NCBI GenBank assembly: GCA_965197525.1
Contig: OZ240211.1
Span: 160,001-224,000 of the forward strand
Length of the DNA: 64,000 bases
Source: Nitrosopumilus sp.
Lineage (GTDB): Archaea; Thermoproteota; Nitrososphaeria; Nitrososphaerales; Nitrosopumilaceae
Direction of reading: 5' to 3'
Shown: positions 4,005 to 52,276 of the stretch, in pieces
Numbering within the stretch: position 1 is the stretch's first letter
Layout: each line of letters begins with the position of its first letter
Position numbers and translations under genes: made by a program
Notes under the pieces: generated by a model
Seen by the model: only the letters and a program-made list of their open reading frames with translations
The model's database searches: none
Told to the model about the DNA's origin: nothing

Positions 4005-4152
4005 CTCGTTGTGTAATACATGATCCGTAATTTCTCAATTCTATCCATTTCAAGTTACAAATTTAAACAATATTCCGACAGGTTCTGTGAAGTTATCGGG
4101 GGTTATCTGTTAATCCCTAAATTGTATAAACCTCTAAACCGTAAGATATTCG

Positions 4153-5346
4153 TTGAAAGCGATAAAGTCAATATCACAGAAATATACGCCGAACTCTGAT
4201 CTAATGGATATGATGGCTATATTCACAAAGATGGTCAATCATTGCATCAAGACAGGATTGAAAGAAGACACTCACAATATGAAGAGGTTGTCCATGTTAT
4301 GTTATCATGAATTACGTAATTATGACATCCTGTCTTCATACAAACTAAATGCAATATCACGAGCTGCAGGCATGTTATCAAACAGAAAACAATCAATCAA
4401 ACGAGGTGTCAGAATAAGAGACCCAATAGTCAAAAATCCCTTTATGACAAACTGTTACGGTATACAACACAACGGTGCACTATTAACAATCCCATACAAG
4501 AAACATAACCCAATCAACATTTTACTCAACGATCACACCCAAAAAATCCTATCTGATCCCGCCTTGACGATGCGTTCGTTTTCATTGACTGCTCTGAACA
4601 TCAGTCTTTGTGTTTCAAAAACAGTACAAGAGATAGAGTGCACCAATCAAGTGGGAATAGACAGAAACCTAAGAAATGTGACGTGTGGGAACGAGAAAGA
4701 GGTGACAGTCTACAAGACAAACAAACTGTTATCCATAAAGGAGAACACAATACACGCTAGGGCAGGATTCCACAGAAATGATCGCAGAAAGAAAGGTCAA
4801 TTCTGGAAACAAAGACAGAGACGAATGAGCAATAGAACAAAGCAGTACATCCACAGAATCTCAAAGGATATAGTAGACAACGCAGTCAAAAACAAGACTG
4901 CAATCGTCATGGAAAACCTGAAAGGAATAAGAAAATTGTACCGAAAAGGAAACAGTCAAGGTAACAAGTACAGGCGTAGATTGAACGGGTGGCAATTCTA
5001 CGAGTTACAACGCCAAATAGAATACAAAGCCCAATGGGTCGGGTTGCCTCCAGTCGAGACAGTAGACCCAAGAAACACGAGCACGCAGTGTCCGAAATGC
5101 GGAAAGAGACTCCAAGAGGACATGCAACAACATCGTAAAATGTCGTGTAATAATTGCGGTTTGTTTATGGACAGGGATATTATCGCTGCCATGAACATAT
5201 CACGCAAGCTGCCCCCTAGGTTTAGGGGTAGTAGAGATGACATAGATGAAGCGCAGTCCGGCACTTTTGAGCAGGCGATGACGGAACCCGGCACACCATT
5301 GGTAATCCGAATAGTCGATATGTCAAAGTCAAGTTATAGGGGTTAA
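4153..5346 (+). CDS. tnpB: RNA-guided endonuclease TnpB
   Basis: RuvC-I GIDRN, RuvC-II IVMENL, zinc finger CPKC..CNNC and RuvC-III DRDIIAAMNI all intact; TTG start. Confidence 0.95.
   Translation: MKAIKSISQKYTPNSDLMDMMAIFTKMVNHCIKTGLKEDTHNMKRLSMLCYHELRNYDILSSYKLNAISRAAGMLSNRKQSIKRGVRIRDPIVKNPFMTNCYGIQHNGALLTIPYKKHNPINILLNDHTQKILSDPALTMRSFSLTALNISLCVSKTVQEIECTNQVGIDRNLRNVTCGNEKEVTVYKTNKLLSIKENTIHARAGFHRNDRRKKGQFWKQRQRRMSNRTKQYIHRISKDIVDNAVKNKTAIVMENLKGIRKLYRKGNSQGNKYRRRLNGWQFYELQRQIEYKAQWVGLPPVETVDPRNTSTQCPKCGKRLQEDMQQHRKMSCNNCGLFMDRDIIAAMNISRKLPPRFRGSRDDIDEAQSGTFEQAMTEPGTPLVIRIVDMSKSSYRG
5209..5330 (+). ncRNA. Predicted omega-RNA scaffold overlapping tnpB 3' end (copy 1)
   Basis: Three stems with compensatory changes among copies; conservation ends at GATATGTCAAAGTC. 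Confidence 0.7.
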
Positions 5347-5415
5347 CCCTCGATAACTTCACAGAACCTTCCGACACGATTATATTCATATGGGTAGTCA
5401 GTTATTCCGACCCCT

Positions 5416-8400
5416 ATGACGATCCCGGCGAAAAACACTCTTTTCATATCCGCCCTAGTTATAGCATTGCCCATTCTCATAGTGGCGTGCACTGCACCGC
5501 ATGCCTACGGGCAGGCAGACGAGCGACCTTTTGTTATGACATGGGCCGTGAGGCAGGGGGGGTTAGTTACGATTCCCGTCGACGATGAGAACGGCACCTA
5601 CGGGGCGACCGGAGAATACACTGTAGACTGGGGGGATGGGACTGTGGAGACCATCAGCGGAACCGCGGAGCACAGATACGCCCATGCAGGCAACTACGCC
5701 ATAAGCATAACAGGGAACTATGCGAAGATCTATCTTTACGGTAGCATACCCAACGGATCCATGTCGGTAGAAGAATATATGGGGTCTACCAGCACGGCCA
5801 TTGCAAGAGTCGGGAGCTCACCCAACGGACTCCTGTCGATAGATCAATGGGGCGACGTCAAATGGACCTCTATGGCGTACGCATTCTCGGGCGCAAGGAA
5901 TCTGGTGTACAATGCAACCGACGTTCCGGATCTTTCCTTGGTGACTGACATGAACCACATGTTCTATTTTGCCAAAAAGTTTAACGGCAATCTCTCCGCG
6001 TGGGACGTCTCGGGTGTGACTGATATGAGCTACATGTTCTATGAAGCCACGGCGTTTAACGGCGACGTCTCAGAGTGGGACGTCTCTGGCGTGACTGACA
6101 TGAGTCGCATGTTTTACGAGTCTGACACCTTTAATCAGGACGTCTCAGAGTGGGACGTCTCTGGCGTGACTGACATAAGCTGGATGTTCAGCAGGGCATT
6201 TAATTTCAATCAAGACATATCATCATGGAATGTGTCGGGCGTGACTGACATGAGACGCATGTTTGCCAACGCCATATCTTTCAATCAGGACATCTCCTCG
6301 TGGGACGTCTCGAACGTAACTGACATGAGCTACATGTTCTACGGTTCTTACTCCTTTAACCACGACATCTCCTCGTGGGATGTCTCAAACGTGACTGACA
6401 TGAGCCACATGTTCCAGTTTGCCTACAAGTTTAACCGTGACATCCACGAGTGGAACGTCTCAAACGTGACTGACATGAACCACATGTTCAAGTATGCCGA
6501 GACGTTTAACGGTAACATCTCCTCGTGGAACGTCTCAAACGTGACTGACATGAACCACATGTTCGAATTTGCCTATGAGTTTAACGGTAACATCTCCGGA
6601 TGGGATGTCTCGGGCGTGGCAGACATGCGCGATATGTTCGATTCTGCCACCTCTTTCAACCAAAACCTTGGAAGATGGTACGTCGTGCCGGAAGATACGT
6701 CTATCGTTGACGGCGACTCTTCCCTTGTAGTTACTACCATATCGGCACAGAACGCCCACTTGGACAAACAGAATCCAACGTACGCCATCATTGTGGGGCA
6801 TGACTCTTCTGCCTTTGAAATGGATCACAACGTGCTCAAACTCAAAGCCACACCTGTACAATCTGTCAAATCCACATACATGGTAGGTGTGACTGCCACA
6901 GGTACGTTCGGTTCAAATAATCAACGACTCGTTAACATTACGGTGGTAGAATATGTGCCTGACACCACCCCTCCCAGTGTCAGTACGATCTGGAGGGACA
7001 GTCCAAGCAATGCGATTACCCATGACACCACCCTGCAATTTGGCATCATGTTCAGTGAGGACGTGCAAAACGTGAACGCTACGGACTTTGTGCTAACAGG
7101 TACCGGCAATGCCTCCGTAACCCACGTGTCAGGCTCCAGCGACGAGTACGGCGTTACAGTCTCGGTCACCGCTGATGGTACTGTGACGTTGGGATTGGCC
7201 GCGGATAACGACATCAAAGATGTGAGCGACAACGAACTGACTGACACCGTTCTCACAGCCGGAACCGACCGCACCTACACTGTTGACACGACTGCCCCCA
7301 CAGTCACGTCAATCGAAAGATACAGTCCCACAGACCAGAACACGGACAACCAGACGCTGGTGTACCAGGTGACGTTCAGCGAGAACGTCACCGGTGTGGA
7401 TACAGGCGACTTTGCCCTCTCGCAAGACAGCACCGGGGCAGGCAGCATAACCGGTCTGACAGGCTCCGGCTACATATACAACATGACAGTCTCTGCTGTA
7501 CAGGACGGCACGTACAACCTTGATCTGGCGTCATCAGGGCACGGTATAACAGATGAGGCAAGCAATCCCCTTACTAACATTGCACCTACAGGAGTGGATC
7601 ACACCTACACAGTCAGTACTGTACCTGCTGACACCACTGCACCAACACTATCATCAATTGAGCGGTACAGTCCCGTTACAGAAAGCACCGACAGCCAGAC
7701 GCTAATCTACGAGGTAACCTTCAGTGAGGATGTGACAGGGGTGGATGCGGCAGACTTTGTTATCTCTCAGGACAGCACTGGGACAGGCAGTACAACCTTG
7801 ACTGGTTCTGATAGCGTGTATTACGTAACAGTTTCTGCAACTCAGGACGGCACATACAACCTTGATCTTGTACAAAACCACGGCATTGAGGATTCGGCAG
7901 ATAATCCTTTAACTGATACTGCCACCACCGGAGTAGACCAGACATATACTGTCAACACCGTACCTGCTGATACCACGGCACCGACACTCACATCAATTGA
8001 GAGATACAATCCTGCTGCCGCAACTACTGACACCCAGACGCTAATCTACGAGGTAACCTTTAGCGAGGATGTAACCGGTGTGACACAGTCTGACTTTGTT
8101 CTGTCTTCTGATAGCACGGGTACTGCTGCTAATGCTGTAACCTCCATATCCGGTTCTGGCAGCCAGTACTTTGTAACGGTCTCTGCATCAAGTGACGGGA
8201 CATACAACCTTGATCTTGTACAAAACCACGGCATCGAGGATTCGGCAGATAACCCTCTAACTGATACTGTCACCACCGGAGTAGACCAGACATATACTGT
8301 CAACACCGTACCTGCTGATACCACGGCACCGACACTCACATCAATTAAGAGATACAATCCTGCTGCCGCAACTACTGACACCCAGACACTAGTCTACGAG

Positions 8401-11400
8401 GTAACCTTTAGCGAGGATGTAACCGGTGTAACCCAGTCCGACTTTGTTCTGTCTTCTGATAGCACGGGCGGTTCCGACCCAGGTACTGGTACCGGCCAGT
8501 TCACTCAGACCGAATCGCCATCAACTGCCATAACAGGTGATCAAGACGTTACTGATACTATAACAGTGTCTAGTCTTGGAAATGCTACATCAGTTTCAGT
8601 TAACCTAAACATTACTCATACATACATTGGTGATCTAAAGGTAGATTTGGTTGCCCCCGACGATACAGCCAAAACGTTACACAACTATTCAGGCAGTAGT
8701 TCAGACGATATAGTAGCTACATACACACCAAACTTTAACGGCGCCTCAATATCGGGAACATGGACGCTGAAGATCAACGACAACTTTCCGTCTGCAGATG
8801 ACGGCGTTCTGAACAGCTGGACACTCACAATTAATTATGGTGATACCCCCGATGTCCCCAATCCTGTAACCTCCATATCCGGTTCTGGCAGCCAGTACTT
8901 TGTAACGGTCTCTGCATCAAGTGACGGGACATACAACCTTGATCTTGTACAAAACCACGGCATTGAGGATTCGGCAGATAACCCTCTAACTGATACTGCC
9001 ACCACCGGAGTAGACCAGACATATACTGTCAACACGGTACCTGCTGATACCACTGCACCGACACTCACATCAATTAAGAGATACAATCCTGCTGTTGCAA
9101 CTACTGACACCCAGACACTAGTATACAAGGTAACCTTTAGCGAGGATGTAACCGGTGTGACACAGTCTGACTTTGTTCTGTCTTCTGATAGCACGGGTAC
9201 TGCTGCTAATGCTGTAACCTCCATATCCGGTTCCGGCAGCCAGTACTTTGTAACGGTCTCTGCATCAAGTGACGGGACATACAACCTTGATCTTGTACAA
9301 AACCACGGCATCGAGGATTCGGCAGATAACCCTCTAACTGATACTGCCACCACCGGAGTAGACCAGACATATACTGTCAACACGGTACCTGCTGATACCA
9401 CTGCACCGACACTCACATCAATTAAGAGATACAATCCTGCTGCCGCAACTACTGACACCCAGACGCTAATCTACGAGGTAACCTTTAGCGAGGATGTAAC
9501 CGGTGTGACACAGTCCGACTTTGTTCTGTCTTCTGATAGCACGGGTACTGCTGCTAATGCTGTAACCTCCATATCCGGTTCCGGCAGCCAGTACTTTGTA
9601 ACGGTCTCTGCATCAAGTGACGGGACATACAACCTTGATCTTGTACAAAACCACGGCATTGAGGATTCGGCAGATAACCCTCTAACTGATACTGCCACCA
9701 CCGGAGTAGACCAGACATATACTGTCAACACGGTACCTGCCGACAACATGGCACCGACACTCACGTCAATTGAGAGATACAATCCTGCTGCCGCAACTAC
9801 TGACACCCAGACACTAGTCTACGAGGTAACCTTTAGCGAGGATGTGACTGAGGTGGATGCAACTGACTTTGCCCTGTCTTCTGATAGCACGGGCGGAGTC
9901 AGTTCCAGTCAGTTCACGCAGACACGTTCTCCTGCCATTGCCATAACTGCAGCTAACACCATAACAGATACCATTACAGTCCCAGGCTCTGGTACTGTTA
10001 CGTCAGTCTCTGTCGCAATAGATGTATCCCACACATACAAAGGCGACCTCAAGATAGATCTCATCGCCCCAGACGGCACGACCAAGACCGTCCACAACCG
10101 CTCTGGAGGCAGCGCAGATGACATAGACCAGACATACACACCAGACTTTGCAGGCGTTCCAATTGCAGGTATCTGGACGCTACAGATAAACGACAACTAT
10201 GCCACCGCAGACGACGGTACCCTGAACAGCTGGACGCTTACGATCAATTCTGGTAGCAGTAGTAGTATTGATACGTCAAACCCTGTAACATCAGTCTCAG
10301 GTTCTGGCGACACGTACCAAGTGACGGTTTTGGCCACACAGGACGGCACATACAACCTTGATCTGATATCGTCAGGACACGACATCGAAGACGAATCAAA
10401 CAATCCACTAACAGACGTGACTCCAACTACAGGTACTGACGAGACGTATACCGTCAATACCGTACCTGATGACACCACTGCACCAACACTATCATCAATT
10501 GAGCGGTCCAGTCCCGTTACAGAAAACACCGACAGCCAGACGCTGACCTACAAGGTGACCTTTAGCGAGGACGTCACCGGAGTGGACACGACTGACTTTG
10601 CCCTGTCTTCTGATAGCACGGGCGGATCAAGCTCTGCCCAGTTCACACAGACACGTTCTCCTGCCATTGCCATAACTGCAGCTAACACCATAACAGATAC
10701 CATTACAGTCCCAGGCTCTGGTACTGTTACGTCAGTCTCTGTCGCAATAGATGTATCCCACACATACAAAGGCGACCTCAAGATAGATCTCATCGCCCCA
10801 GACGGCACGACCAAGACCGTCCACAACCGCTCTGGAGGCAGCGCAGATGACATAGACCAGACATACACACCAGACTTTGCAGGCGTTCCAATTGCAGGTA
10901 TCTGGACGCTACAGATAAACGACAACTATGCCACCGCAGACGACGGTACCCTGAACAGCTGGACGCTTACGATCAATTCTGGTAGCAGTAGTAGTATTGA
11001 TACGTCAAACCCTGTAACATCAGTCTCAGGTTCTGGCGACACGTACCAAGTGACGGTTTTGGCCACACAGGACGGCACATACAACCTTGATCTGATATCG
11101 TCAGGACACGACATCGAAGACGAATCAAACAATCCACTAACAGACGTGACTCCAACTACAGGTACTGACGAGACGTATACCGTCAATACCGTACCTGATG
11201 ACACCACTGCACCAACACTATCATCAATTGAGCGGTCCAGTCCCGTTACAGAAAACACCGACAGCCGGACGCTGACCTACAAGGTGACCTTTAGCGAGGA
11301 CGTCACCGGAGTGGACACGACTGACTTTGCCCTGTCTTCTGATAGCACGGGCGGATCAAGCTCTGCCCAGTTCACACAGACACGTTCTCCTGCCATTGCC

Positions 11401-14400
11401 ATAACTGCAGCTAACACCATAACAGATACCATTACAGTCCCAGGCTCTGGTACTGTTACGTCAGTCTCTGTCGCAATAGATGTATCCCACACATACAAAG
11501 GCGACCTCAAGATAGATCTCATCGCCCCAGACGGCACGACCAAGACCGTCCACAACCGCTCTGGAGGCAGCGCAGATGACATAGACCAGACATACACACC
11601 AGACTTTGCAGGCGTTCCAATTGCAGGTATCTGGACGCTACAGATAAACGACAACTATGCCACCGCAGACGACGGTACCCTGAACAGCTGGACGCTTACG
11701 ATCAATTCTGGTAGCAGTAGTAGTATTGATACGTCAAACCCTGTAACATCAGTCTCAGGTTCTGGCGACACGTACCAAGTGACGGTTTTGGCCACACAGG
11801 ACGGCACATACAACCTTGATCTGATATCGTCAGGACACGACATCGAAGACGAATCAAACAATCCACTAACAGACGTGACTCCAACTACAGGTACTGACGA
11901 GACGTATACCGTCAATACCGTACCTGATGACACCACTGCACCAACACTATCATCAATTGAGCGGTCCAGTCCCGTTACAGAAAACACCGACAGCCAGACG
12001 CTGACCTACAAGGTGACCTTTAGCGAGGACGTCACCGGAGTGGACACGACTGACTTTGCCCTGTCTTCTGATAGCACGGGCGGATCAAGCTCTGCCCAGT
12101 TCACACAGACACGTTCTCCTGCCATTGCCATAACTGCAGCTAACACCATAACAGATACCATTACAGTCCCAGGCTCTGGTACTGTTACGTCAGTCTCTGT
12201 CGCAATAGATGTATCCCACACATACAAAGGCGACCTCAAGATAGATCTCATCGCCCCAGACGGCACGACCAAGACCGTCCACAACCGCTCTGGAGGCAGC
12301 GCAGATGACATAGACCAGACATACACACCAGACTTTGCAGGCGTTCCAATTGCAGGTATCTGGACGCTACAGATAAACGACAACTATGCCACCGCAGACG
12401 ACGGTACCCTGAACAGCTGGACGCTTACGATCAATTCTGGTAGCAGTAGTAGTATTGATACGTCAAACCCTGTAACATCAGTCTCAGGTTCTGGCGACAC
12501 GTACCAAGTGACGGTTTTGGCCACACAGGACGGCACATACAACCTTGATCTGATATCGTCAGGACACGACATCGAAGACGAATCAAACAATCCACTAACA
12601 GACGTGACTCCAACTACAGGTACTGACGAGACGTATACCGTCAATACCGTACCTGATGACACCACTGCACCAACACTATCATCAATTGAGCGGTCCAGTC
12701 CCGTTACAGAAAACACCGACAGCCGGACGCTGACCTACAAGGTGACCTTTAGCGAGGACGTCACCGGAGTGGACACGACTGACTTTGCCCTGTCTTCTGA
12801 TAGCACGGGCGGATCAAGCTCTGCCCAGTTCACACAGACACGTTCTCCTGCCATTGCCATAACTGCAGCTAACACCATAACAGATACCATTACAGTCCCA
12901 GGCTCTGGTACTGTTACGTCAGTCTCTGTCGCAATAGATGTATCCCACACATACAAAGGCGACCTCAAGATAGATCTCATCGCCCCAGACGGCACGACCA
13001 AGACCGTCCACAACCGCTCTGGAGGCAGCGCAGATGACATAGACCAGACATACACACCAGACTTTGCAGGCGTTCCAATTGCAGGTATCTGGACGCTACA
13101 GATAAACGACAACTATGCCACCGCAGACGACGGTACCCTGAACAGCTGGACGCTTACGATCAATTCTGGTAGCAGTAGTAGTATTGATACGTCAAACCCT
13201 GTAACATCAGTCTCAGGTTCTGGCGACACGTACCAAGTGACGGTTTTGGCCACACAGGACGGCACATACAACCTTGATCTGATATCGTCAGGACACGACA
13301 TCGAAGACGAATCAAACAATCCACTAACAGACGTGACTCCAACTACAGGTACTGACGAGACGTATACCGTCAATACCGTACCTGATGACACCACTGCACC
13401 AACACTATCATCAATTGAGCGGTCCAGTCCCGTTACAGAAAACACCGACAGCCAGACGCTGACCTACAAGGTGACCTTTAGCGAGGACGTCACCGGAGTG
13501 GACACGACTGACTTTGCCCTGTCTTCTGATAGCACGGGCGGTTCTGACACAGGTACTGGTACTGGTACTGGCCAGTTCACTCAGACCAACTCACCATCAA
13601 CTGCCATAACAGGTGCTCAAGATGTTACTGATACTATAGCAGTGTCTAGTTCTGGAAATGTTGCATCAGTTTCAGTTGACCTAAACATTACTCATACATA
13701 CATTAGTGATCTAAAGGTAGATTTGGTTGCCCCTGACGGTACAACCCAAACGTTACACAATCGTTCAGGCGGTAGTTCAGACGACATAGTAGCTACATAC
13801 ACACCAAGCTTTAATGGCACCTCAATATCAGGAACATGGACGCTGAAGATCAACGACGACTATCCGTCTGCTGATGACGGCATTCTGAACAGCTGGACAC
13901 TCACAATTAATTATGGCGATACTGCCGATGTCCCCAATCCTATAACCTCCATATCCGGTTCTGGCAGCCAGTACTTTGTGACAGTCTCTGCATCAAGTGA
14001 TGGGACATACAACCTTGATCTTGTACAAAACCACGGCATCGAGGATTCGGCAGATAATCCTCTAACTGATACTGCCACCACCGGAGTAGACCACACCTAC
14101 ACGGTCAACACAGTACCTGCTGATACCACAGCACCAACACTCACATCAATTGAGAGATACAATCCTGTTGCTGCAACTACTGACAGCCAGATACTAGTCT
14201 ACGAGGTAACCTTTAGCGAAGATATAACCGGTGTGACACAGTCTGACTTTACCCTGTCTTCTGATAGTACGGGCGGTCCTGACCCAGGTACTGGTACTGG
14301 TACTGGCCAGTTCACTCAGACCAACTCACCATCGACTGCCATAACAGGTGCTCAAGATGTTACTGATACTATAGCAGTGTCTAGTTCTGGAAATGTTGCA

Positions 14401-19471: not shown

Positions 19472-19626
19472 TCTACTTGGATTGGTTTAGTTTTTAGAGA
19501 AATTTAAAGCGTTGTCTAAAAAATTTAATAGATTATATGGCTCTGTCGCATTCACGAGTGGTAAAATAAAACCAAATAAATAAAAAAACACCTTTATTAA
19601 AAACAAGCCTTGTAATTTATAATAAC

Positions 19627-20826
19627 ATGCAAGCCATAAAATCAATAACACAAAAGCATACGCCAAACTCTGAACTAAAAGAGTTGATGGATACATTCAT
19701 AGAAATGGTAAACCTTTCCATTAGAATAGGACTAAAAGAAGATGTATACAATATGAAACGGTTGTCTTATCTATGTTATCATGAGTTAAATCAATATGAT
19801 ATCTTATCATCATACAAGCTCAATGCAATATCAAGGGCTGCTGGCATACTATCAAACAGAAGGCAATCAATAAAACGTGGCGTCAAAGTTAAATATCCAA
19901 AAATAAAAAAGCCATTTATCACTAATTGTTACGGTATAAAACACAATGGTGCACTACTAACAATACCATTCAAGAACAGGCAACCTATCAATATACTGTT
20001 AAATGATCACACTCAAAATATTCTGTCTGACCCTGAATTAACTATACGTTCATTTTCATTAAATGATGGCACCATTAGTATTTGTGTCTCAAAACAAATA
20101 GAAGAGATAGAGTGCTCCAATGTAGTAGGTATAGACAGAAACCTTAGAAATATCACATGTGGGAATGATGAAAAAGTAATGTTCTATAAAACTAACAAAC
20201 TGTTATCTATCAAAGAGAACACAATACATGCAAGAGCTGGTTTTCACAGAAATGATCGAAGAAAGAAAGGTCGATTCTGGAAGGTAAAACAGCAAAGAAT
20301 GGCCAATAGAACAAAACAATACATACACAAAATATCAAAAGATATTGTGGATAATGCCGTTAGTAAAAAGGCTGTAATTGTGTTAGAAAACTTGAAAGGA
20401 ATAAGAAAATTGTACAAGAAAGGAAATGGTCAAGGAAACAAGTATAGACGTAGATTGAATGGCTGGCAATTCTACGAGTTACAACGCCAAATAGAATACA
20501 AAGCCCAATGGGCTGGACTCCCAGTCAAATTTGTAGACCCAAAACGCACGAGCACGCAATGTCCAAGATGCGGAAAGAAACTCCAAGAGGACATGCAACA
20601 ACATCGTAAAATGTCGTGTAATAATTGTGGATTATTCATGGACAGAGACATCATAGCTGCCATGAACATATCACGCAAACTGTCCCCTAGGTTTAGGGAT
20701 AGTAGAGATGGCATAAGTGAAGCGCAGTCTGACGTTTTTGAATCAGCGATGATGGAACCCTGCAGACAGGTAATCCAGATAGTCGATATGTCAAAGTCCA
20801 GTGTTCTGAGTAATTGTTATTGTTAA
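19627..20826 (+). CDS. tnpB: RNA-guided endonuclease TnpB
   Basis: GIDRN / IVLENL / CPRC..CNNC / DRDIIAAMNI intact. Confidence 0.95.
   Translation: MQAIKSITQKHTPNSELKELMDTFIEMVNLSIRIGLKEDVYNMKRLSYLCYHELNQYDILSSYKLNAISRAAGILSNRRQSIKRGVKVKYPKIKKPFITNCYGIKHNGALLTIPFKNRQPINILLNDHTQNILSDPELTIRSFSLNDGTISICVSKQIEEIECSNVVGIDRNLRNITCGNDEKVMFYKTNKLLSIKENTIHARAGFHRNDRRKKGRFWKVKQQRMANRTKQYIHKISKDIVDNAVSKKAVIVLENLKGIRKLYKKGNGQGNKYRRRLNGWQFYELQRQIEYKAQWAGLPVKFVDPKRTSTQCPRCGKKLQEDMQQHRKMSCNNCGLFMDRDIIAAMNISRKLSPRFRDSRDGISEAQSDVFESAMMEPCRQVIQIVDMSKSSVLSNCYC
20680..20798 (+). ncRNA. Predicted omega-RNA scaffold (copy 2)
   Basis: Same stems as copy 1 with compensatory changes. Confidence 0.7.
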
Positions 20827-20886
20827 TAACACCACTCGTGAATGCAACAGAACCGATTATATTTAGCAAATAAATTTTCAAATCAT

Positions 20887-22202: not shown

Positions 22203-22389
22203 CTAGATTTTTTACAATCTGTCTCTAGTTTGTTCACTAGTAATCCTGCATATGTCTTGTCATCTTGAATTGTGATTTTTTTAGTTTGTTTGGGTATAAT
22301 TATACGATAAGGTTCTGTTGGGTTAACGGGTGTTGATCAGAAATTATACTCATAACACTAAATATAGATAACCTTAAACCGTACAATAC

Positions 22390-23601
22390 TTGTTGAGAGC
22401 AATAAAGTCAATAGCACAAAAACATACACCAAACTCTGACCTAATGGACATGATGATCACGTTCACAGACATGGTTAACCGTTGTATCAAGATAGGGCTA
22501 AAGGAAGATACCCACAACATGAAACGGTTGTCTATGTTATGCTATCCCGAATTACGTCACTACGACATCCTATCTTCATACAAGCTCAATGCAATATCAC
22601 GAGCTGCTGGCATCCTGGCAAACAGAGATCAGTCAGTCAAACGTGGCCTCAAAGTAAAAGATCCAATTATCAAAAATCCGTTTATCACTAATTGTTACCG
22701 TATAAAACACAACGGCGCCTTACTCACAATTCCATACAAGCCAAGAAATCCAATTAACATCCTACTCGACGAACATACTCAAAAAATACTGTCTGATCCC
22801 GCCTTGGCAGTGCGCTCGTTTTCATTGACTGCTCTCAACATCAGTCTTTGTATTTCAAAAAAAGTACAGGAGATAGAGTGCACCAAGACAGTGGGAGTAG
22901 ACAGAAACCTTAGAAACGTCACATGCGGAAATGAAGAAGAGGTAACATTCTACAAAACCAACAAGTTACTCTCAATCAAAGAGAACACAATACATGCCAG
23001 ATCTGGTTTCCGTAGAAACGACAAAAGAAAGAAAGGTCAATTCTACAAAGAAAAACAGAGAAGAATGTCAAACAGGACAAAACAGTACATACACAGAATC
23101 TCAAAAAACATAGTAGACAATGCAGTCAAGAAAAAGGCTGTCATTGTTCTAGAAAATCTAAAGGGAATTAGAAAACTGTACAGAAAAGGAAACAATCAAG
23201 GCAACAAATACAGACGTAGATTGAACGGATGGCAATTCTTTGAACTACAAAGACAAATAGAATACAAAGCCCAATGGGTCGGGCTACCTGTAAAAACAGT
23301 AGACCCAAAAAACACGAGCACGCAGTGTCCGCAATGCGGAAAGAGACTCCAAGAGGACATGCAACAACATCGTAAATCATCGTGTAATAATTGCGGTTTG
23401 TTTATGGACAGGGATATCATCGCTGCCATGAACATATCACGCAAACTGTCTCCTAGGTTTAGAGATAGTAGAGATGGCATACATGAAGCGCAGTCCGGTG
23501 TTTTTGAACCGGCGATGGCGGAACCCTGCAGACCGGTAATCCGAATAGTCGATATGTCAAAGTCGAGTAGTCAATGTGTTGTTGATGGTTGTGGAATCTG
23601 A
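22390..23601 (+). CDS. tnpB: RNA-guided endonuclease TnpB
   Basis: GVDRN / IVLENL / CPQC..CNNC / DRDIIAAMNI intact. Confidence 0.95.
   Translation: MLRAIKSIAQKHTPNSDLMDMMITFTDMVNRCIKIGLKEDTHNMKRLSMLCYPELRHYDILSSYKLNAISRAAGILANRDQSVKRGLKVKDPIIKNPFITNCYRIKHNGALLTIPYKPRNPINILLDEHTQKILSDPALAVRSFSLTALNISLCISKKVQEIECTKTVGVDRNLRNVTCGNEEEVTFYKTNKLLSIKENTIHARSGFRRNDKRKKGQFYKEKQRRMSNRTKQYIHRISKNIVDNAVKKKAVIVLENLKGIRKLYRKGNNQGNKYRRRLNGWQFFELQRQIEYKAQWVGLPVKTVDPKNTSTQCPQCGKRLQEDMQQHRKSSCNNCGLFMDRDIIAAMNISRKLSPRFRDSRDGIHEAQSGVFEPAMAEPCRPVIRIVDMSKSSSQCVVDGCGI
23446..23564 (+). ncRNA. Predicted omega-RNA scaffold (copy 3)
   Basis: Covarying stems, e.g. CTGTCTCCTA/TAGAGATAG and CCGGT/ACCGG. Confidence 0.7.
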
Positions 23602-23672
23602 CATGATCCTCAGCAGTCAACACCCGTTAACCCAACAGAACCATAATATAGTCATAGTTTGTAATACAAACA

Positions 23673-29542: not shown

Positions 29543-29605
29543 CGGGTGTTGATCAGAAATTACACCCATAACACTAAATATAGAAACCTTAAACCGTAAT
29601 ACTTA

Positions 29606-30814: not shown

Positions 30815-30865
30815 CATGATCCTCAGCAGTCAACACCCGTTAACCCAACAGAACCTACATAAGAA

Positions 30866-41038: not shown

Positions 41039-44000
41039 TTGGTTAAGAATATTTTTGCTTTTTGCATAGGTGGATTCAGCAGTCATACTGGTTATCAAAA
41101 ATTGCAGTTACACTGGCTTTTGTTCCTCTCTGTGGTACTGGTGTCTGGGATGCTTGTATTGCATCCTGGTGTGTATGACATTTCAGTATCTAGTTGGGAG
41201 GAGACAGGGGATGTATTTGATGTGTTGCCAATAAAAGACGATGCGTTATCTTTGCAGTCATTCCAAGACGTCATTGTATCTGCAACATCTGCAAACAAAG
41301 AAGAAGGTGATATCACACTGCCTATGGATTCCATATTCCCTGCATCTTGGACTGATCTGATGGATTCAGCGACACATTCAATATTGCCCATACTTGCATA
41401 CGCTCAAACATCTAACTCTGATGCATTTATAACTACGTGGGATACTACCGGGGAAAAGACTACTACCCCCAACCTATCTATCGCCTCTGTTAAATTTCAT
41501 ATAGATGTCAAACCCGGCAGCCAAGTAACAGTTGATTGGGGGAACGGTCAATCAAATACGTACAATGCATCACAAGGCGTGTCTCATAACTATCAAAACA
41601 GTCAACCCGATGTGTCCAAAACCAACACTATTTCAATCACAGGTGATTTGGAGCGCTTTTATTTTTATTATGTTGAATCTTTCAAAACTCACGATTCCCC
41701 GCAGTTACTCATGTCACTAGACCAATGGGGTGATGCCAAATGGACTGACATGACAAATATGTTCAGAGGTGCTACAAACATGCAGTATAATGTAACTGAT
41801 GTGCCTGATCTCTCTTCTGGTCCTGATGTAGATTACATGTTCAGATACGTCAATTCGTTTAACGGTGATCTGTCTGACTGGGATGTATCTGAAATGACTG
41901 ATTTGGGATACATGTTTGCCGATACGCCATCTTTTAACTCTGACATCTCAGGTTGGGATGTATCTAAAGTGACTAGTATGGCTTACATGTTTGCGAATTC
42001 CCCCTCTTTTAACGCCGATATCTCAGGTTGGGATGTATCATCTGTGGAATACATGTATTATATGTTCGGCTCTGCATCCTCTTTTAACGCCGATATCTCA
42101 GGTTGGGATGTATCATCTGTGGAATACATGTATAATATGTTCGGTGCCGCATCCTCTTTTAACGCCGATATCTCAGGTTGGGATGTCTCATCTATGTATA
42201 GTGTGAGTCTGATGTCTGAGATGTTCTATGACGCATCCTCATTTGACCAGAATTTGGGACCTTGGTTTATTGTACTAGAAGATACGGTTGTAGGCCATGA
42301 CAAGACACAGGTTACCCCCATATCCTCACAGGTTACCTCCCTATCCTCATTTGTTGAGTTTGATGCAAATACTGACAACTATGACATTACAGGCGCTGAT
42401 GCCAATTATTTTACAATCACAGACGGGCATCTTGTCCTCAACTCCCCATCTGACTATAACTCTAAATCCCAATATGACATAACAATAACTGCCAACAACG
42501 CAGTTGTGGACAAACTGTATCTTGATGTGGCACCTTCCATTTCTGTTACTATTACAGTCAAACAACCCTCTGAAACAACTGTCACATCCATTGCAAGACA
42601 CAATCCCTTGACACCAACTACTGATAGTAGTACACTTCAATTCAAGGTACTGTTCAGTGATGATGTAACCAACGTAAACTCTGAGGACTTTGAGCTGTCT
42701 TCGAGCAGTCCTACAAATACTATACCACATACGTACACCAGTACCCCCTCACTATTCATACCATATGATACTGTCAAGACAGATACAATTACTGTATCTG
42801 ACTCTGACACTGTCTCTGCAGTATCCGTTTCAGTAGACATTACCCACGCATGGATAGGCGATCTCCTAGTCGAACTCATCTCGCCTGACAATCAAGTAGT
42901 AACACTGCACAACTATGCCGGTGACTCTGCAGACGACATCGTAAAAACATACATACTTGAATACGACGATGACGTCTCAATTAACGGCGATTGGCAGTTG
43001 CGCATGTATGATAACTATAATGCTGATAGCGGGACCTTGAACAACTGGTCAATTGCATTCGGTGATGACTCTGCATTCAATTCTATCACGTCAGTGACAG
43101 GTTCTGGTAACTTGTACTATGTTACAGTCGCATCATCCCAGGCAGGTACATACAACCTGGATATTGCAGAAGACAACGACATTGTAGACGCTTCAAGTAA
43201 TTCACTGGCCAGCCGTACACCCACAGGCGGTGATCAGTCATACACCGTTACTGCAACAGATGTTACTACAACAACTGATACCACACCTCCGGCACTCACA
43301 CTTGTAGGGTCACCTACCGTAACTATGGGTGTGGGCACCACATATACTGAGGACGGCGCCACCTGTATCGACAACAATGACGGCGATATCTCGTCGCAGA
43401 TTGGCATGACAGGTTCAGTGAATACAGGAACAGCTGGAACATACGTTATAACCTATACATGCACAGATGCTGCCAATAATCCTGCTACGCCGATAACTAG
43501 AACAGTCAGCGTTGTGGACTCGCCACCAACTGTTACATCCATCACAAGGCACAGTCCTGCAGAACAAAACACGAGTAACAGCACGCTTCAGTTCAGTGTA
43601 CTGTTCAGTGAGGCTGTAACTGGTGTAAGTCAGGACGATTTTGAGCTGTCCTCAGACAGTCCAACAGATGCTACTCCTCAGACATTTACATATTCTAGTG
43701 AGCCATCCCTCTTTGTACCATATGGTGTAACCAAGACAGATACAATCACCGTATCTGACTCTGCCACTGTTACATCAGTGTCAGTATCAGTGGATATCAC
43801 ACATACCTACATTGGCGATCTAAAGGTAGAACTCGTTGCACCTGACAATACAGCCCATACACTTCATAATCATATCGGCGGGTCAGATGATGATATTGTT
43901 AAAACTTACACACTTGAATACGACGATGACGTCTCAATTAACGGTGATTGGCAGTTGCGCCTGTATGATAACTATGACGCAGATGAGGGAACCTTGAACA

Positions 44001-46117
44001 GCTGGTCAATTACGTTTGGTGATGACTCTACGCCTAATCCCATCACAGCAGTGACAGGTTCTGGTACTCTATACTACGTTACAGTCGCATCACCACAAAC
44101 AGGCACATACAACTTGGATATTGCAGAAGACAACGACATTGTAGACGCTTCAAGTAATTCACTGGCCAGCCGTACACCCACAGGCGGTGATCAGTCATAC
44201 ACCGTTACTGCAACAGATGTTACTACAACAACTGATACCACACCTCCGGCACTCACACTTGTAGGGTCACCTACCGTAACTATGGGTGTGGGCACCACAT
44301 ATACTGAGGACGGCGCCACCTGTATCGACAACAATGACGGCGATATCTCGTCGCAGATTGGCATGACAGGTTCAGTGAATACAGGAACAGCTGGAACATA
44401 CGTTATAACCTATACATGCACAGATGCTGCCAATAATCCTGCTACGCCGATAACTAGAACAGTCAGCGTTGTGGACTCGCCACCAACCGTTACAACCATC
44501 ACAAGGCACAGTCCTGCAGAACAAAACACGAGTAACAGCACGCTTCAGTTCAGTGTACTGTTCAGTGAGGCTGTAACCGGTGTAGGCCAGGACGATTTTG
44601 AGCTGTCCTCAGACAGTCCAACAGATGCTACTCCTCAGACATTTACATATTCTAGTGAGCCATCCCTCTTTGTACCATATGGTGTAACCAAGACAGATAC
44701 AATCACCGTATCTGACTCTGCCACTGTTACATCAGTGTCAGTATCAGTGGATATCACACATACCTACATCGGCGATCTAAAGGTGGAACTCGTTGCACCT
44801 GACAATACAGTCCGTATACTTCATAATCATATCGGCGGGTCAGATGATGATATTGTTAAAACTTACACACTTGAATACGACGATGACGTCTCAATTAACG
44901 GTGATTGGCAGTTGCGCCTGTATGATAACTATGACGCAGATGAGGGAACATTGAACAGCTGGTCAATTACGTTTGGTGATGGCTCTACGCCTAATCCCAT
45001 CACAGCAGTGACAGGTTCTGACAACCAGTACTATGTTACAGTCGCATCATCCCAGGCAGGCACATACAACCTGGATATTGCAGAAGACAACGACATTGTA
45101 GATTCTTCAAATAATTCATTGTCCAGCCGTACACCCACAGGCGATGATCAGTCATACACAGTTACTGTGTCAGCTGATGCCACACCTCCGGCACTCACAC
45201 TTGTAGGGTCACCTACCGTAACTATGGGTGTGGGCACCACATATACTGAGGACGGCGCCACCTGTATCGACAACAATGACGGCGATATCTCGTCGCAGAT
45301 TGGCATGACAGGTTCAGTGAATACAGGAACAGCTGGAACATACGTTATAACCTATACATGCACAGATGCTGCCAATAATCCTGCTACGCCGATAACTAGA
45401 ACAGTCAGCGTTGTGGACTCGCCACCAACCGTTACAACCATCACAAGGCACAGTCCTGCAGAACAAAACACGAGTAACAGCACGCTTCAGTTCAGTGTAC
45501 TGTTCAGTGAGGCTGTAACCGGTGTAGGCCAGGACGATTTTGAGCTGTCCTCAGACAGTCCAACAGATGCTACTCCTCAGACATTTACATATTCTAGTGA
45601 GCCATCCCTCTTTGTACCATATGGTGTAACCAAGACAGATACAATCACCGTATCTGACTCTGCCACTGTTACATCAGTGTCAGTATCAGTGGATATCACA
45701 CATACCTACATCGGCGATCTAAAGGTGGAACTCGTTGCACCTGACAATACAGTCCGTATACTTCATAATCATATCGGCGGGTCAGATGATGATATTGTCA
45801 AAACATACACACCTGACTTTGGAAGTGTCTCAATTAACGGTGATTGGCAGTTGCGCCTGTATGATAACTATGACGCAGATGAGGGAACATTGAACAGCTG
45901 GTCAATTACGTTTGGTGATGGCTCTACGCCTAATCCCATCACAGCAGTGACAGGTTCTGACAACCAGTACTATGTTACAGTCGCATCATCCCAGGCAGGC
46001 ACATACAACTTGGATATTGCAGAAGACAACGACATTGTAGATTCTTCAAATAATTCATTGTCCAGCCGTACACCCACAGGCGATGATCAGTCATACACCG
46101 TTACTGCAACTAGTTAG
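41039..46117 (+). CDS. Large (1692 aa) surface protein: DUF285 repeats, cadherin-like, Ig modules with four P-domains, three DUF5011-like Ig domains
   Basis: FNADISGWDVSSV repeats; DITHTYIGDLKVELVAPD; DTTPPALTLVGSPTVTMGVGTTYTEDGATCIDNNDG; exact start uncertain. Confidence 0.9.
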   Translation: MVKNIFAFCIGGFSSHTGYQKLQLHWLLFLSVVLVSGMLVLHPGVYDISVSSWEETGDVFDVLPIKDDALSLQSFQDVIVSATSANKEEGDITLPMDSIFPASWTDLMDSATHSILPILAYAQTSNSDAFITTWDTTGEKTTTPNLSIASVKFHIDVKPGSQVTVDWGNGQSNTYNASQGVSHNYQNSQPDVSKTNTISITGDLERFYFYYVESFKTHDSPQLLMSLDQWGDAKWTDMTNMFRGATNMQYNVTDVPDLSSGPDVDYMFRYVNSFNGDLSDWDVSEMTDLGYMFADTPSFNSDISGWDVSKVTSMAYMFANSPSFNADISGWDVSSVEYMYYMFGSASSFNADISGWDVSSVEYMYNMFGAASSFNADISGWDVSSMYSVSLMSEMFYDASSFDQNLGPWFIVLEDTVVGHDKTQVTPISSQVTSLSSFVEFDANTDNYDITGADANYFTITDGHLVLNSPSDYNSKSQYDITITANNAVVDKLYLDVAPSISVTITVKQPSETTVTSIARHNPLTPTTDSSTLQFKVLFSDDVTNVNSEDFELSSSSPTNTIPHTYTSTPSLFIPYDTVKTDTITVSDSDTVSAVSVSVDITHAWIGDLLVELISPDNQVVTLHNYAGDSADDIVKTYILEYDDDVSINGDWQLRMYDNYNADSGTLNNWSIAFGDDSAFNSITSVTGSGNLYYVTVASSQAGTYNLDIAEDNDIVDASSNSLASRTPTGGDQSYTVTATDVTTTTDTTPPALTLVGSPTVTMGVGTTYTEDGATCIDNNDGDISSQIGMTGSVNTGTAGTYVITYTCTDAANNPATPITRTVSVVDSPPTVTSITRHSPAEQNTSNSTLQFSVLFSEAVTGVSQDDFELSSDSPTDATPQTFTYSSEPSLFVPYGVTKTDTITVSDSATVTSVSVSVDITHTYIGDLKVELVAPDNTAHTLHNHIGGSDDDIVKTYTLEYDDDVSINGDWQLRLYDNYDADEGTLNSWSITFGDDSTPNPITAVTGSGTLYYVTVASPQTGTYNLDIAEDNDIVDASSNSLASRTPTGGDQSYTVTATDVTTTTDTTPPALTLVGSPTVTMGVGTTYTEDGATCIDNNDGDISSQIGMTGSVNTGTAGTYVITYTCTDAANNPATPITRTVSVVDSPPTVTTITRHSPAEQNTSNSTLQFSVLFSEAVTGVGQDDFELSSDSPTDATPQTFTYSSEPSLFVPYGVTKTDTITVSDSATVTSVSVSVDITHTYIGDLKVELVAPDNTVRILHNHIGGSDDDIVKTYTLEYDDDVSINGDWQLRLYDNYDADEGTLNSWSITFGDGSTPNPITAVTGSDNQYYVTVASSQAGTYNLDIAEDNDIVDSSNNSLSSRTPTGDDQSYTVTVSADATPPALTLVGSPTVTMGVGTTYTEDGATCIDNNDGDISSQIGMTGSVNTGTAGTYVITYTCTDAANNPATPITRTVSVVDSPPTVTTITRHSPAEQNTSNSTLQFSVLFSEAVTGVGQDDFELSSDSPTDATPQTFTYSSEPSLFVPYGVTKTDTITVSDSATVTSVSVSVDITHTYIGDLKVELVAPDNTVRILHNHIGGSDDDIVKTYTPDFGSVSINGDWQLRLYDNYDADEGTLNSWSITFGDGSTPNPITAVTGSDNQYYVTVASSQAGTYNLDIAEDNDIVDSSNNSLSSRTPTGDDQSYTVTATS
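43277..46110 (+). repeat. Three near-identical tandem units (957, 942 and ~935 bp) of DUF5011-like plus Ig/P-domain
   Basis: GGCGCCACCTGTATCG at 43355, 44312 and 45254. Confidence 0.9.
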
Positions 46118-46898: not shown

Positions 46899-47540
46899 AA
46901 AACTAACAAACTGTTATCTATCAAAGAGAACACAATACATGCAAAAGCTGGTTTTCACAGAAATGACCGTAGAAAAAAAGGTCAATTCTGGAAGGTAAAA
47001 CAGCAAAGAATGGCCAATAGAACAAAACAATACATACACAAAATATCAAAAGATATTGTGGATAATGCCGTTAGTAAAAAGGCTGTAATTGTGTTAGAAA
47101 ACTTGAAAGGAATAAGAAAATTGTACAAGAAAGGAAATGGTCAAGGCAACAAATACAGACGTAGATTGAATGGCTGGCAATTCTACGAGTTACAACGCCA
47201 AATAGAATACAAAGCCCAATGGGCCGGGCTCCCACCAGTAAGATATGTAGACCCAAAAAACACGAGCACGCAATGTCCAAGATGCGGAAAGGGACTCCAA
47301 GAGGACATGCAACACAGACGTAAAATGTCGTGTAATAATTGTGGATTATACATGGATAGAGACATTGTAGCTTCCATGAATATATCTCGCAAACTGTCCC
47401 CTAGGTTTAGGGATAGTAGAGTTGGCATAAGTGAAGCGCAGTCTGACGTTTTTGAGTCAGCGATGATGGAACCCTGTATACCGGTAATCCAGATAGTCGA
47501 TATGTCAAAGTCCAGTGTTCTGAGTGATTGTTATTGTTAA
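46899..47540 (+). pseudogene. tnpB: Truncated tnpB (lacks the N-terminal half including RuvC-I)
   Basis: Retains IVLENL, zinc finger and DRDIVASMNI. Confidence 0.9.
47394..47512 (+). ncRNA. Predicted omega-RNA scaffold (copy 6)
   Basis: Near-identical to the copy 2 scaffold. Confidence 0.62.
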
Positions 47541-47612
47541 TAATACCACTCGTGAATGCAACAGAACCGCCTAATCCAAGAGCTTAAATATATTCAGAGA
47601 ATGTTGTTTTTT

Positions 47613-47828: not shown

Positions 47829-47840
47829 GAATTTTACATA

Positions 47841-48554: not shown

Positions 48555-48601
48555 TAGTGTTCTAACTCTCTAGAATGAGAACACTAATTAAATAGGCGTT
48601 A

Positions 48602-48946: not shown

Positions 48947-48948
48947 GT

Positions 48949-49308: not shown

Positions 49309-49407
49309 TTACTTTTGTTTGCATTATCAACTGGAACAGTGCCTGGTAAACTCAAAACCGAATTTTCTATTTCTGTATTTTAGTTGCGTGTTATTTAAAA
49401 ATCCCAG

Positions 49408-50436: not shown

Positions 50437-50468
50437 ATCTTGTTAATTTGAACTCGGTTATTTTGTAC

Positions 50469-50678: not shown

Positions 50679-50811
50679 GATGATGAATGCTAATTATTAT
50701 GTTATTTTCTTGTTTTTATATAAATTTGATTTGACGTCAATACATCATATGATGGTATCTTGATGTGGAAGGTTCTGTTGGGCTAACGGGTGTTGACTGC
50801 TGAGGATCATG

Positions 50812-52023
50812 TCAGATTCCACAACCATCAACAACACATTGACTACTCGACTTTGACATATCGACTATTCGGATTACCGGTCTGCAGGGTTCCGCCATCG
50901 CCGGTTCAAAAACACCGGACTGCGCTTCATGTATGCCATCTCTACTATCTCTAAACCTAGGAGACAGTTTGCGTGATATGTTCATGGCAGCGATGATATC
51001 CCTGTCCATAAACAAACCGCAATTATTACACGATGATTTACGATGTTGTTGCATGTCCTCTTGGAGTCTCTTTCCGCATTGCGGACACTGCGTGCTCGTG
51101 TTTTTTGGGTCTACTGTTTTTACAGGTAGCCCGACCCATTGGGCTTTGTATTCTATTTGTCTTTGTAGTTCAAAGAATTGCCATCCGTTCAATCTACGTC
51201 TGTATTTGTCGCCTTGACCGTTTCCTTTTCCGTACAGTTTTCTAATTCCCTTTAGATTTTCTAGAACAATGACAGCCTTTTTCTTGACTGCATTGTCTAC
51301 TATGTTTTTTGAGATTCTGTGTATGTACTGTTTTGTTCTGTTTGACATTCTTCTCTGTTTTTCTTTGTAGAATTGACCTTTCTTTCTTTTGTCGTTTCTA
51401 CGGAAACTGGATCTGGCATGTATTGTGTTCTCTTTGATTGAGAGTAACTTGTTGGTTTTGTAGAATGTTACCTCTTCTTCATTTCCGCATGTGACGTTTC
51501 TAAGGTTTCTGTCTACTCCTACTGTCTTGGCGCACTCTATCTCCTGTACTTTTTTTGAAATACAAAGACTGATGTTGAGAGCAGTCAATGAAAACGAGCG
51601 CACTGCCAAGGCGGGATCCGACAGTATTTTTTGAGTATGTTCGTTGAGTAGGATGTTAATTGGATTTCTTGGCTTGTATGGAATTGTGAGTAAGGCGCCG
51701 TTGTGTTTTATACGGTAACAATTAGTGATAAACGGATTTTTGATAATTGGATCTTTTACTTTGAGGCCACGTTTGACTGACTGATCTCTGTTTGCCAGGA
51801 TGCCAGCAGCTCGTGATATTGCATTGAGTTTGTATGAAGATAGGATGTCGTAGTGACGTAATTCGTGATAGCATAACATAGACAACCGTTTCATGTTGTG
51901 GGTATCTTCCTTTAGCCCTATCTTGATACAACGGTTAACCATGTCTGTGAACGTGATCATCATGTCCATTAGGTCAGAGTTTGGTGTATGTTTTTGTGCT
52001 ATTGACTTTATTGCTCTCAACAA
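50812..52023 (-). CDS. tnpB: RNA-guided endonuclease TnpB
   Basis: Nearly identical to copies 3 and 4; catalytic D-E-D intact. Confidence 0.95.
   Translation of the reverse strand: MLRAIKSIAQKHTPNSDLMDMMITFTDMVNRCIKIGLKEDTHNMKRLSMLCYHELRHYDILSSYKLNAISRAAGILANRDQSVKRGLKVKDPIIKNPFITNCYRIKHNGALLTIPYKPRNPINILLNEHTQKILSDPALAVRSFSLTALNISLCISKKVQEIECAKTVGVDRNLRNVTCGNEEEVTFYKTNKLLSIKENTIHARSSFRRNDKRKKGQFYKEKQRRMSNRTKQYIHRISKNIVDNAVKKKAVIVLENLKGIRKLYGKGNGQGDKYRRRLNGWQFFELQRQIEYKAQWVGLPVKTVDPKNTSTQCPQCGKRLQEDMQQHRKSSCNNCGLFMDRDIIAAMNISRKLSPRFRDSRDGIHEAQSGVFEPAMAEPCRPVIRIVDMSKSSSQCVVDGCGI
50849..50967 (-). ncRNA. Predicted omega-RNA scaffold (copy 5)
   Basis: Matches the copy 3 scaffold. Confidence 0.68.
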
Positions 52024-52057
52024 GTATTATACGGTTTAAGGCTATCTATATTTAGTG

Positions 52058-52276
52058 TTATGAGTATAATTTCTGATCAACACCCGTTAACCCAACAGAA
52101 CCATATGGAATATACATTAAATATGCATCATTGCTCAATGTCTCTAACTCTATGATCGTCGATGAGTGTCCCTTTATTTCGTCTGTCTCTTGTGATTGTT
52201 CCAGTGATACATGGTATCCAACATATGCACCGGTGATGATAAACGTCGTAATCACAAGACCAATTAACAGATTCAT
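52058..52276 (-). CDS. Small membrane-anchored protein; C-terminus replaced by TIR sequence
   Basis: N-terminal TM; reads ...YIPY then GSVGLTGVDQ from the TIR; the empty site would give ...YIPYQDTII*. Confidence 0.55.
   Translation of the reverse strand: MNLLIGLVITTFIITGAYVGYHVSLEQSQETDEIKGHSSTIIELETLSNDAYLMYIPYGSVGLTGVDQKLYS

Follow-up and report, generated by a model that had tools for sequence, protein, structure and literature searches.

A 64-kb window of the Nitrosopumilus sp. contig OZ240211.1 (genome positions 160001-224000), the whole stretch of DNA analysed here, contains five complete transposons whose sole gene is tnpB and one truncated copy of the same kind. We propose that these are non-autonomous transposons in which tnpB and an omega RNA sit between IS6-like terminal inverted repeats (TIRs); they are probably moved in trans by IS6-like transposases, with a three-base motif on one side of each insertion, W-T-R (A or T, then T, then A or G), acting as the target-adjacent motif (TAM) of TnpB and with TnpB activity promoting homing or retention. 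The host genome is a single contig of 2.21 Mb, with 39.6% GC and an estimated completeness of 98.99%.

The complete elements are 1288-1332 bp long and terminate in inverted ends of 24-26 nt that read GGYTCTGT...ACAGAACC. Target-site duplications (TSDs) of 8 bp flank four of the five; those of elements A and B are perfect, those of C2 and C3 match at 7/8, and C1 has none. The original prediction, made from the letters of the window alone, had described five complete elements of about 1.29-1.33 kb plus a truncated one, TIRs of 24-26 bp starting GG(T/C)TCTGT, and four 8-bp duplications, two of them perfect; this anatomy was borne out on each point. Identity between types A, B and C is ~78-80%, and it rises to 97-99% among the C copies. 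In the complete window copies, 22-41 nt separate the tnpB stop codon from the right element end; in element A the distance is 22 nt, and the stop codon falls within the right TIR. The boundaries of element A are independently confirmed, because contigs of other samples that hold the element part from the window sequence exactly at 4081 and 5368. The elements, their open reading frames (ORFs) and their flanks are as follows, in window coordinates.

4070-4080, plus strand: left flank of element A, with a TAM-like ATA at 4070-4072 and the left TSD TTCCGACA at 4073-4080
4081-5368, plus strand: element A, 1288 bp, with TnpB ORF 4153-5346 (397 aa)
5068-5368, plus strand: candidate omega-RNA scaffold of element A, overlapping the tnpB 3' end and stopping at the right TIR
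5369-5376, plus strand: right TSD copy of element A, TTCCGACA
19539-20854, plus strand: element B, 1316 bp, with TnpB ORF 19627-20826 (399 aa); TAM-like ATA at 19528-19530, TSD GATTATAT at 19531-19538 and 20855-20862
22311-23642, plus strand: element C1, 1332 bp, with TnpB ORF 22390-23601 (403 aa); TAM-like TTA at 22300-22302, flanks TACGATAA and ATAATATA mismatched, so no TSD
29528-30855, plus strand: element C2, 1328 bp, with TnpB ORF 29606-30814 (402 aa) and a left end lacking one T; TAM-like ATG at 29517-29519, TSD TAAATAAG at 29520-29527 and TACATAAG at 30856-30863 (7/8)
46899-47568, plus strand: 5'-truncated B-type copy, with the 3' half of tnpB (ORF fragment 47010-47540, 176 aa) and an intact right end
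50771-52102, minus strand: element C3, 1332 bp, with TnpB ORF 50812-52023 (403 aa); on the tnpB strand, TAM-like ATA at 52111-52113, TSD TTCCATAT at 52103-52110 and TTCCACAT at 50763-50770 (7/8)

All five complete ORFs encode TnpB, matching NF040570 at 129-151 bits (cut-off 100) and PF07282 at 75-80 bits (cut-off 26.3). Alignment to solved TnpB and Cas12f chains places the RuvC D-E-D motifs at GIDRN, LENL and DRD, and the C4 zinc finger CPRCG...CNNCG (CxxC...CxxC) is retained.

A conserved motif is present on one side of these elements only. We oriented 40 TnpB/omega-RNA elements by their tnpB strand and found that positions -11 to -9 from the left end, abutting the left TSD on its 5' side, read W-T-R in 35/40 (TTA in 15 of 40, TTG in 12 of 40, ATA in 5 of 40 and ATG in 3 of 40), or in 36/40 if C2 is corrected for the nucleotide missing from its left end; none of the 26 elements with intact TSDs is without it. 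Its genomic frequency is 8.8%, giving p ~1e-28 to 1e-32. The five window copies read ATA, ATA, TTA, ATG and ATA at these positions. No other offset was enriched in an offset scan, and the mirror position beyond the right end stood at background, with 6/40. The earlier reading that the insertion sites share no target motif is therefore correct for the TSDs themselves, which have no sequence in common, but not for the three bases immediately 5' of the left TSD.

The motif follows tnpB rather than the ends. At 44 IS6-type ends outside TnpB elements in the same genome, W-T-R occurs at 8/44 (Fisher p = 1e-11), and around seven autonomous IS6-like elements with perfect TSDs in relatives it occurs on 2/14 sides. 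Among TnpB copies of other genomes, it precedes 8/12 in another Nitrosopumilus genome (6/7 of those with a TSD) and 4/4 in Bathyarchaeota, and two further congeners have TTG at -11 to -9. Because near-identical inverted ends give a transposase no means of discriminating between sides, and because the motif tracks tnpB and not the type of TIR, we infer that W-T-R, in its forms TTA, TTG, ATA and ATG, is the TAM of TnpB.

The transposases that canonically accompany tnpB are missing from this genome. Neither Y1 TnpA (PF01797) nor a serine recombinase (PF00239) has a match anywhere in its 98.99%-complete sequence, and both models score in control genomes. The IS6/IS240 DDE domain PF13610, by contrast, has seven matches of 42-61 bits, above its cut-off of 27. 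These IS6-like transposases are 378-383 aa long, and several are intact, among them those at genome positions 699969-701120, 746963-748099 and 2002343-2003476. Their residues ~130-335 align to positions 1-200 of the 202 in the NCBIfam IS6 model NF033587, which is their best match; the next best NCBIfam model is IS1, at 61 bits. The N-terminal ~130 residues combine a SWIM-like CxC..CxH motif with a zinc ribbon of the IS1/IS1595 type.

The elements that bear these transposases have GGTTCTGT ends and 8-bp TSDs. Indeed, with the TnpB elements set aside, every TIR-bounded coding element with such ends encodes an IS6-like transposase. Four of them are given here, in genome coordinates.

583727-588872: IS6-like element with the same kind of ends
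699962-703151: autonomous IS6-like element with a methyltransferase-like passenger
746475-748444: autonomous IS6-like element, 1970 bp, TSD CTATTGTG
1956395-1960520: IS6-like element, TSD TTTAATAG, transposase broken

Over its outer 18 nt, the TIR of the element at 746475-748444 is identical to that of the TnpB subfamily at 724290, 838811 and 1567235, and the B-type TIR shares its inner 11 nt, ACGAGTGGTAA, with the element at 699962. Mobilisation of the TnpB elements in trans by IS6-like DDE transposases is probable and well supported by these sequences, because the genome lacks a Y1 or serine TnpA and contains IS6-like elements with matching ends and TSDs. The original prediction had proposed a DDE transposase acting in trans, on the strength of IS6-like ends, and the IS6-like elements of this genome fit that proposal. 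It had also entertained ISL3 as a source of the ends; we rejected an ISL3 partner on the score of the ISL3 model, which is 19 bits on the transposases between these ends. Two further IS6-like genes, at genome positions 923186 and 1596824, were discarded as partners, since they are part of other elements, without GGTTCTGT ends. TnpB and transposase were not found within one element in any of ~60 copies from five Nitrosopumilus genomes, Bathyarchaeota and Thermoplasmatota.

The autonomous IS6-like elements carry a variety of passengers: a DNA-methyltransferase-like ORF in this genome, a protein with a SocA/Panacea antitoxin domain at locus L115, a proteasome-subunit-like protein at locus L136, and ORFs, several in number, that belong to no family. 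Those at loci L135, L136 and L137, in three congeneric genomes, share the TSD TGTT(T/C)TAG, which points either to an old insertion at an orthologous site or to site-specific insertion.

A BLAST search of the whole genome with the window elements returned 53 loci, among them ~37 copies that are full or nearly so and fall into at least eight subfamilies; the strong expansion that six copies in the window had suggested extends to the genome as a whole, where TnpB elements total ~2.5% of the 2.2-Mb symbiont sequence. Family A alone accounts for ~20 copies, which share 94-99% identity with the window copy and mostly have perfect TSDs. When GGNTCTGT ends were paired with their inverted partners genome-wide, 26 elements proved to have 8-bp TSDs of unrelated sequence with at most one mismatch, far beyond the number expected by chance. 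The family occurs in Nitrosopumilus, Bathyarchaeota and Thermoplasmatota, and in 5/81 genomes of the genus.

Some copies have lost most of tnpB. In ~10 derivatives of 208-655 bp, the left end is joined to the last 100-350 nt of the parent and the right end, and the region that they retain coincides with the candidate omega-RNA part of the complete elements; the truncated B-type copy at 46899-47568 retains it as well. Within this region, a core, GGTAATCC..AGTCGAT, is conserved in nucleotide sequence even in Bathyarchaeota relatives whose TnpB is 37-44% identical in amino-acid sequence, 13/43 predicted pairs covary, and the fold z-score for element A is -2.8. No Rfam family matched within the window. 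Because the derivatives keep this part, and because it shows distant nucleotide conservation and covariation, the retained 3' region appears to be the omega-RNA scaffold; the short elements would then be standalone guide-RNA derivatives, and the guide of element A would start at 5369. Contigs from a sponge metatranscriptome cover the element, with a summed depth that is higher over its 3' 200 nt, and one of them continues past 5368; RNA contigs can neither reveal RNA ends nor exclude DNA, and we count them only as a hint.

These features suggest how the elements might spread. IS6-like transposases encoded in 2-3 kb elements elsewhere in the genome would mobilise the TnpB units in trans, each insertion creating an 8-bp target duplication. 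Transcription through the right end would then yield a guide made up of the right TSD copy and the downstream flank. TnpB would require a short W-T-R motif 5' of its target, and an unoccupied site, being W-T-R followed by eight variable bases and the downstream flank, would present exactly a TAM and a guide match; TnpB would cut such empty alleles, and repair from the occupied copy would result in homing or retention. The occupied site would itself be safe, since at the left junction the match would stop after 8 nt and at the right junction ACC, not a TAM, would precede the guide match. Such a benefit would be restricted to insertions that land 8 bp downstream of a TAM, and this filtering of insertions by TnpB could explain a near-universal, one-sided motif that is offset by the length of the TSD, because only TAM-proximal insertions would gain.

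The evolutionary form of this argument is that TnpB was transplanted from a scarless IS605-type setting onto an IS6-like DDE transposon, where the variable TSD became the first 8 nt of guide/target pairing, the TAM came to lie one TSD upstream, and TnpB activity decides which insertions persist; here we consider the balance to be even.

Several observations weigh against trans-mobilised, homing TnpB elements. The NF033587 scores of the transposases, 102.8 and 120.6 bits, fall below the equivalog cut-off of 125; the enzymes appear to be IS6-like, and not members of IS6 at the curated threshold. For family A, the most abundant and youngest, no autonomous element of the genome has an identical TIR; agreement is limited to the first 9 nt and to scattered positions further in, and the closest IS6-linked end, at 17/18, is found in another Nitrosopumilus genome that hosts A-like copies. 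Among 81 genomes of the genus, 27 have an IS6-like transposase and five have this TnpB family; the two co-occur in 3/3 complete genomes and in 3/5 overall, which is not significant against a base rate of 33%. We found no empty alleles among the 20 nearest genomes, which are ~70% identical, lack the elements and have intergenic DNA that is unalignable to the base, and no contig bridges the element in four public runs, of which contigs over 3300-6200 were compared; three of the four hold the element only, in other contexts. Members of the IS6 family studied in bacteria, such as IS26, do not excise but transpose through cointegrates, formed replicatively or conservatively; if movement here were of the IS26 type, donor restoration in the style of IS605 would not apply, leaving only homing into empty alleles.

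The motif also has its limits. Its information content is only ~2.8 bits, and there are exceptions to it at -11 to -9, with GAT in one Thermoplasmatota copy and CTA in one copy of the other Nitrosopumilus genome. A second TnpB lineage, 33-34% identical and present at loci L144 and L145 of one genome (G034) and L153 of another (G291), has GGTYCTGTCAAGTTATAG-type ends and perfect 8-bp TSDs; it reads TAT, TAT and TGA at -11 to -9 in the few clean copies available, and 30 further loci are mostly decayed or without clean ends. Possibly, this lineage has a different TAM.

The fixed offset of the motif, with only -11 enriched, would also be expected if TnpB, with or without its RNA, docked on the TAM and handed the adjacent DNA to the IS6-like transposase, a form of targeting at insertion similar to that of CRISPR-associated transposons. 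Such directed insertion would account for the motif in all 26 copies with intact TSDs, very young A-family copies included, and for its absence around IS6-type ends without TnpB. We nevertheless regard it as unlikely: no contact between TnpB and a transposase is known, the two genes never occur in one element among the ~60 copies, and the derivatives without tnpB carry the motif too, so that TnpB would have to act in trans. Moreover, the consensus of a metagenome-assembled genome displays fixed insertions only, and selection after insertion explains the same data. Another possibility, to which we give a low probability, is that the IS6-like transposase itself prefers W-T-R on one side of its target, independently of TnpB. 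Some DDE transposases do prefer particular targets, and TTA or ATG lies upstream of the transposase-proximal end in 2/7 autonomous elements of relatives; near-identical inverted ends, however, predict symmetry, and the mirror side is at its background of 6/40. The low counts at IS6-type ends unlinked to TnpB (8/44 in this genome, 2/14 sides in relatives) point the same way, and the motif is kept across differing TIR interiors, in families A-H and in Bathyarchaeota, always following the orientation of tnpB.

Two other explanations rank lower still. That the units are immobile relics whose TnpB has been exapted for a host function, for example RNA-guided regulation, seems very improbable; published accounts of exapted, immobilised TnpBs provide a precedent and nothing found here supports it. 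The catalytic residues are intact, dozens of copies are 94-99% identical to the A copy of the window and mostly have perfect TSDs, copies in other samples lie in different contexts with loose ends at both boundaries, and the family is missing from most congeners, with 5/81 genomes positive. We give even less credence to ordinary IS1341-type elements of the IS200/IS605 group, moved by a Y1 TnpA, with inverted ends and TSDs that are incidental. The units are indeed TnpB-only, and NCBIfam IS200/IS605-type models match their TnpBs weakly, at 61-69 bits; against this stand the absence of a Y1 TnpA from the 98.99%-complete genome, TIRs of 24-26 nt with 26 exact or near-exact 8-bp TSDs of variable sequence, and a motif that is separated from the left end by the TSD rather than abutting it. 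Mobilisation in trans by IS6-like transposases remains the best-supported reading.

The elements described here have in common with IS200/IS605 elements (ISDra2, IS608 and the IS1341 group) a typical DRDxN TnpB and, here as a candidate, an omega RNA that overlaps the tnpB 3' end; in both, the guide would come from the right-end flank and the TAM would lie on the left-end side, so that the empty site equals TAM plus guide match, and standalone omega-RNA derivatives, again as candidates here, are found in both. IS200/IS605 elements, however, have subterminal hairpins without TIRs or TSD, insert directly 3' of the TAM by means of a Y1 transposase and excise without a scar, whereas in the elements described here an 8-bp TSD separates the putative TAM from the left end and would become the first 8 nt of the target. 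IS607 elements have a serine-recombinase TnpA and neither TIR nor TSD, in contrast to the TIRs and TSDs of this family and to the genome without a PF00239 match.

The likeness to the IS6/IS26 family (IS26, IS257, IS1216 and IS6100) lies in the 8-bp TSDs and in a DDE domain that matches PF13610 and the NCBIfam IS6 model over its full length; the ends of IS257 and IS26, which we take to start GGYTCTGT(TG), begin like those of the elements studied here. The archaeal autonomous elements are longer, at 1970-3294 bp against 0.7-0.9 kb, and often have passenger genes; their transposase is extended at the N-terminus by ~130 residues that hold two zinc-binding modules, and it scores just under the NCBI IS6 cut-off; and the TnpB elements themselves encode no transposase.

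TnpBs associated with DDE transposons have been described before. Six branches (DDE-1 to DDE-6), all with inverted terminal repeats, are reported by Altae-Tran et al. 2023 (PNAS, PMC10691335), who also describe solo TnpBs whose ends resemble those of transposase-bearing elements and which they read as mobilised in trans. As in those branches, TnpB is enclosed here by the TIRs of a DDE transposon, and no more than 250 bp separate its 3' end from the element end (PMC10691335). The differences, as far as the compared portions of that paper extend, are that transposase and TnpB are found there in one element and here never, in ~60 copies, and that no IS6-like partner is named; IS630 is the DDE partner given (PMC10691335), and a 2026 review lists ISL2, IS630 and IS1031 (PMC13565253). 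Our literature search, in which the supplementary tables of Altae-Tran et al. lay outside the comparison, found no report of an IS6-like partner of TnpB, of this archaeal family, or of a TAM set one TSD length from the element end; this clade could be one of the six published branches. In Fanzor1, likewise a TnpB relative inside a DDE transposon with TIRs and TSDs, the RNA also has to accommodate a duplicated target at the right end; there, the 5' TSD is taken to be part of the TAM and the 3' TSD to be absorbed into the RNA scaffold (PMC10711439; PMC13565253). The elements described here differ in that the sequence of the TSD varies and the conserved motif lies upstream of it. A variable TSD cannot be TAM or scaffold, which, together with the upstream position of the motif, implies that it would serve as guide and target sequence.

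The accepted role of TnpB is to make good the loss that IS605 and IS607 elements incur when they excise without a scar. Non-canonical carriage of TnpB was part of the original prediction, and the anatomy is indeed neither that of IS605 nor that of IS607; its novelty was overstated, because DDE-associated TnpBs have been known since 2023, and what appears new relative to published work is the IS6-like ends and the TAM-like motif offset from the end by the length of the TSD. Recent reviews list as open both the rarity of TnpB-DDE links in prokaryotes and the function of TnpB alongside target duplications (PMC13565253). The family offers a clean natural case: its young copies number in the dozens, its candidate partner transposase is encoded in the same genome, and candidate standalone guide-RNA derivatives are present. 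It also shows that TnpB elements of this kind can expand massively. The landing-site signature predicts the TAM (5'-TTR/ATR) and the start of the guide to the base, which puts both the mechanism and a group of compact archaeal TnpB nucleases within reach of direct tests. If the proposal is right, TnpB activity, whether through homing or through TAM-directed choice, and not the transposase, would decide which insertions persist, and the flanks would be a natural record of RNA-guided 'drive' by a transposon for which excision is improbable.

Several other elements and arrangements were observed alongside this family. Among 13 copies of this genome that lack TSDs we found no flank swaps of the kind that recombination between copies would leave. 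On OZ245003.1, a contig of another Nitrosopumilus genome, two A-like copies ~126 kb apart and in opposite orientation have exchanged TSDs (TAGAAACT/TTATGTTA against TTATGTTA/TAGAAACT), an arrangement that bears the signature of inversion by recombination between the two copies. A B-type element at genome position 1394563-1396016 has both ends and a perfect TSD around an interior that has been replaced or interrupted, and contains a 133-aa ORF that resembles, as judged by eye, the N-terminus of an IS1595-type transposase. At 883991-884841 and 572469-573303 lie two elements of 835-851 bp with TIRs of the same type that match at 29-30/30; neither encodes a transposase or has homology to TnpB or omega RNA, a 96-aa ORF is present in one, and they are presumably relatives of the IS6-like elements that resemble miniature inverted-repeat transposable elements (MITEs). 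A further family of IS6-type ends, GGTTCTGTCNGGTTATAGAGAYCTAA, occurs as many solo or paired ends (for example at 350234, 418805, 503825, 674703 and 2156065) without TnpB homology, and these are probably remnants or MITEs of other IS6-like elements.

The host is a sponge-associated ammonia-oxidising archaeon, and one of the runs that hold the element is labelled a sponge metatranscriptome. No tRNAs were found in the window. Element C2 (29528-30855) lies ~390 bp downstream of the gene for subunit A of an A/V-type ATP synthase (27366-29141) and immediately precedes the next ORF (30866-31432); its insertion may split an operon. Element A lies 48 bp upstream of a giant repeat-protein gene at 5416-17313, which encodes 3965 aa with nine proprotein-convertase P-domains, and a second such gene, at 41039-46117, encodes a repeat protein of 1692 aa with four. 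Both proteins combine DUF285 (BspA-like) repeats with FG-GAP or Ig-like domains and are of a surface or adhesin type that is frequent in sponge symbionts.

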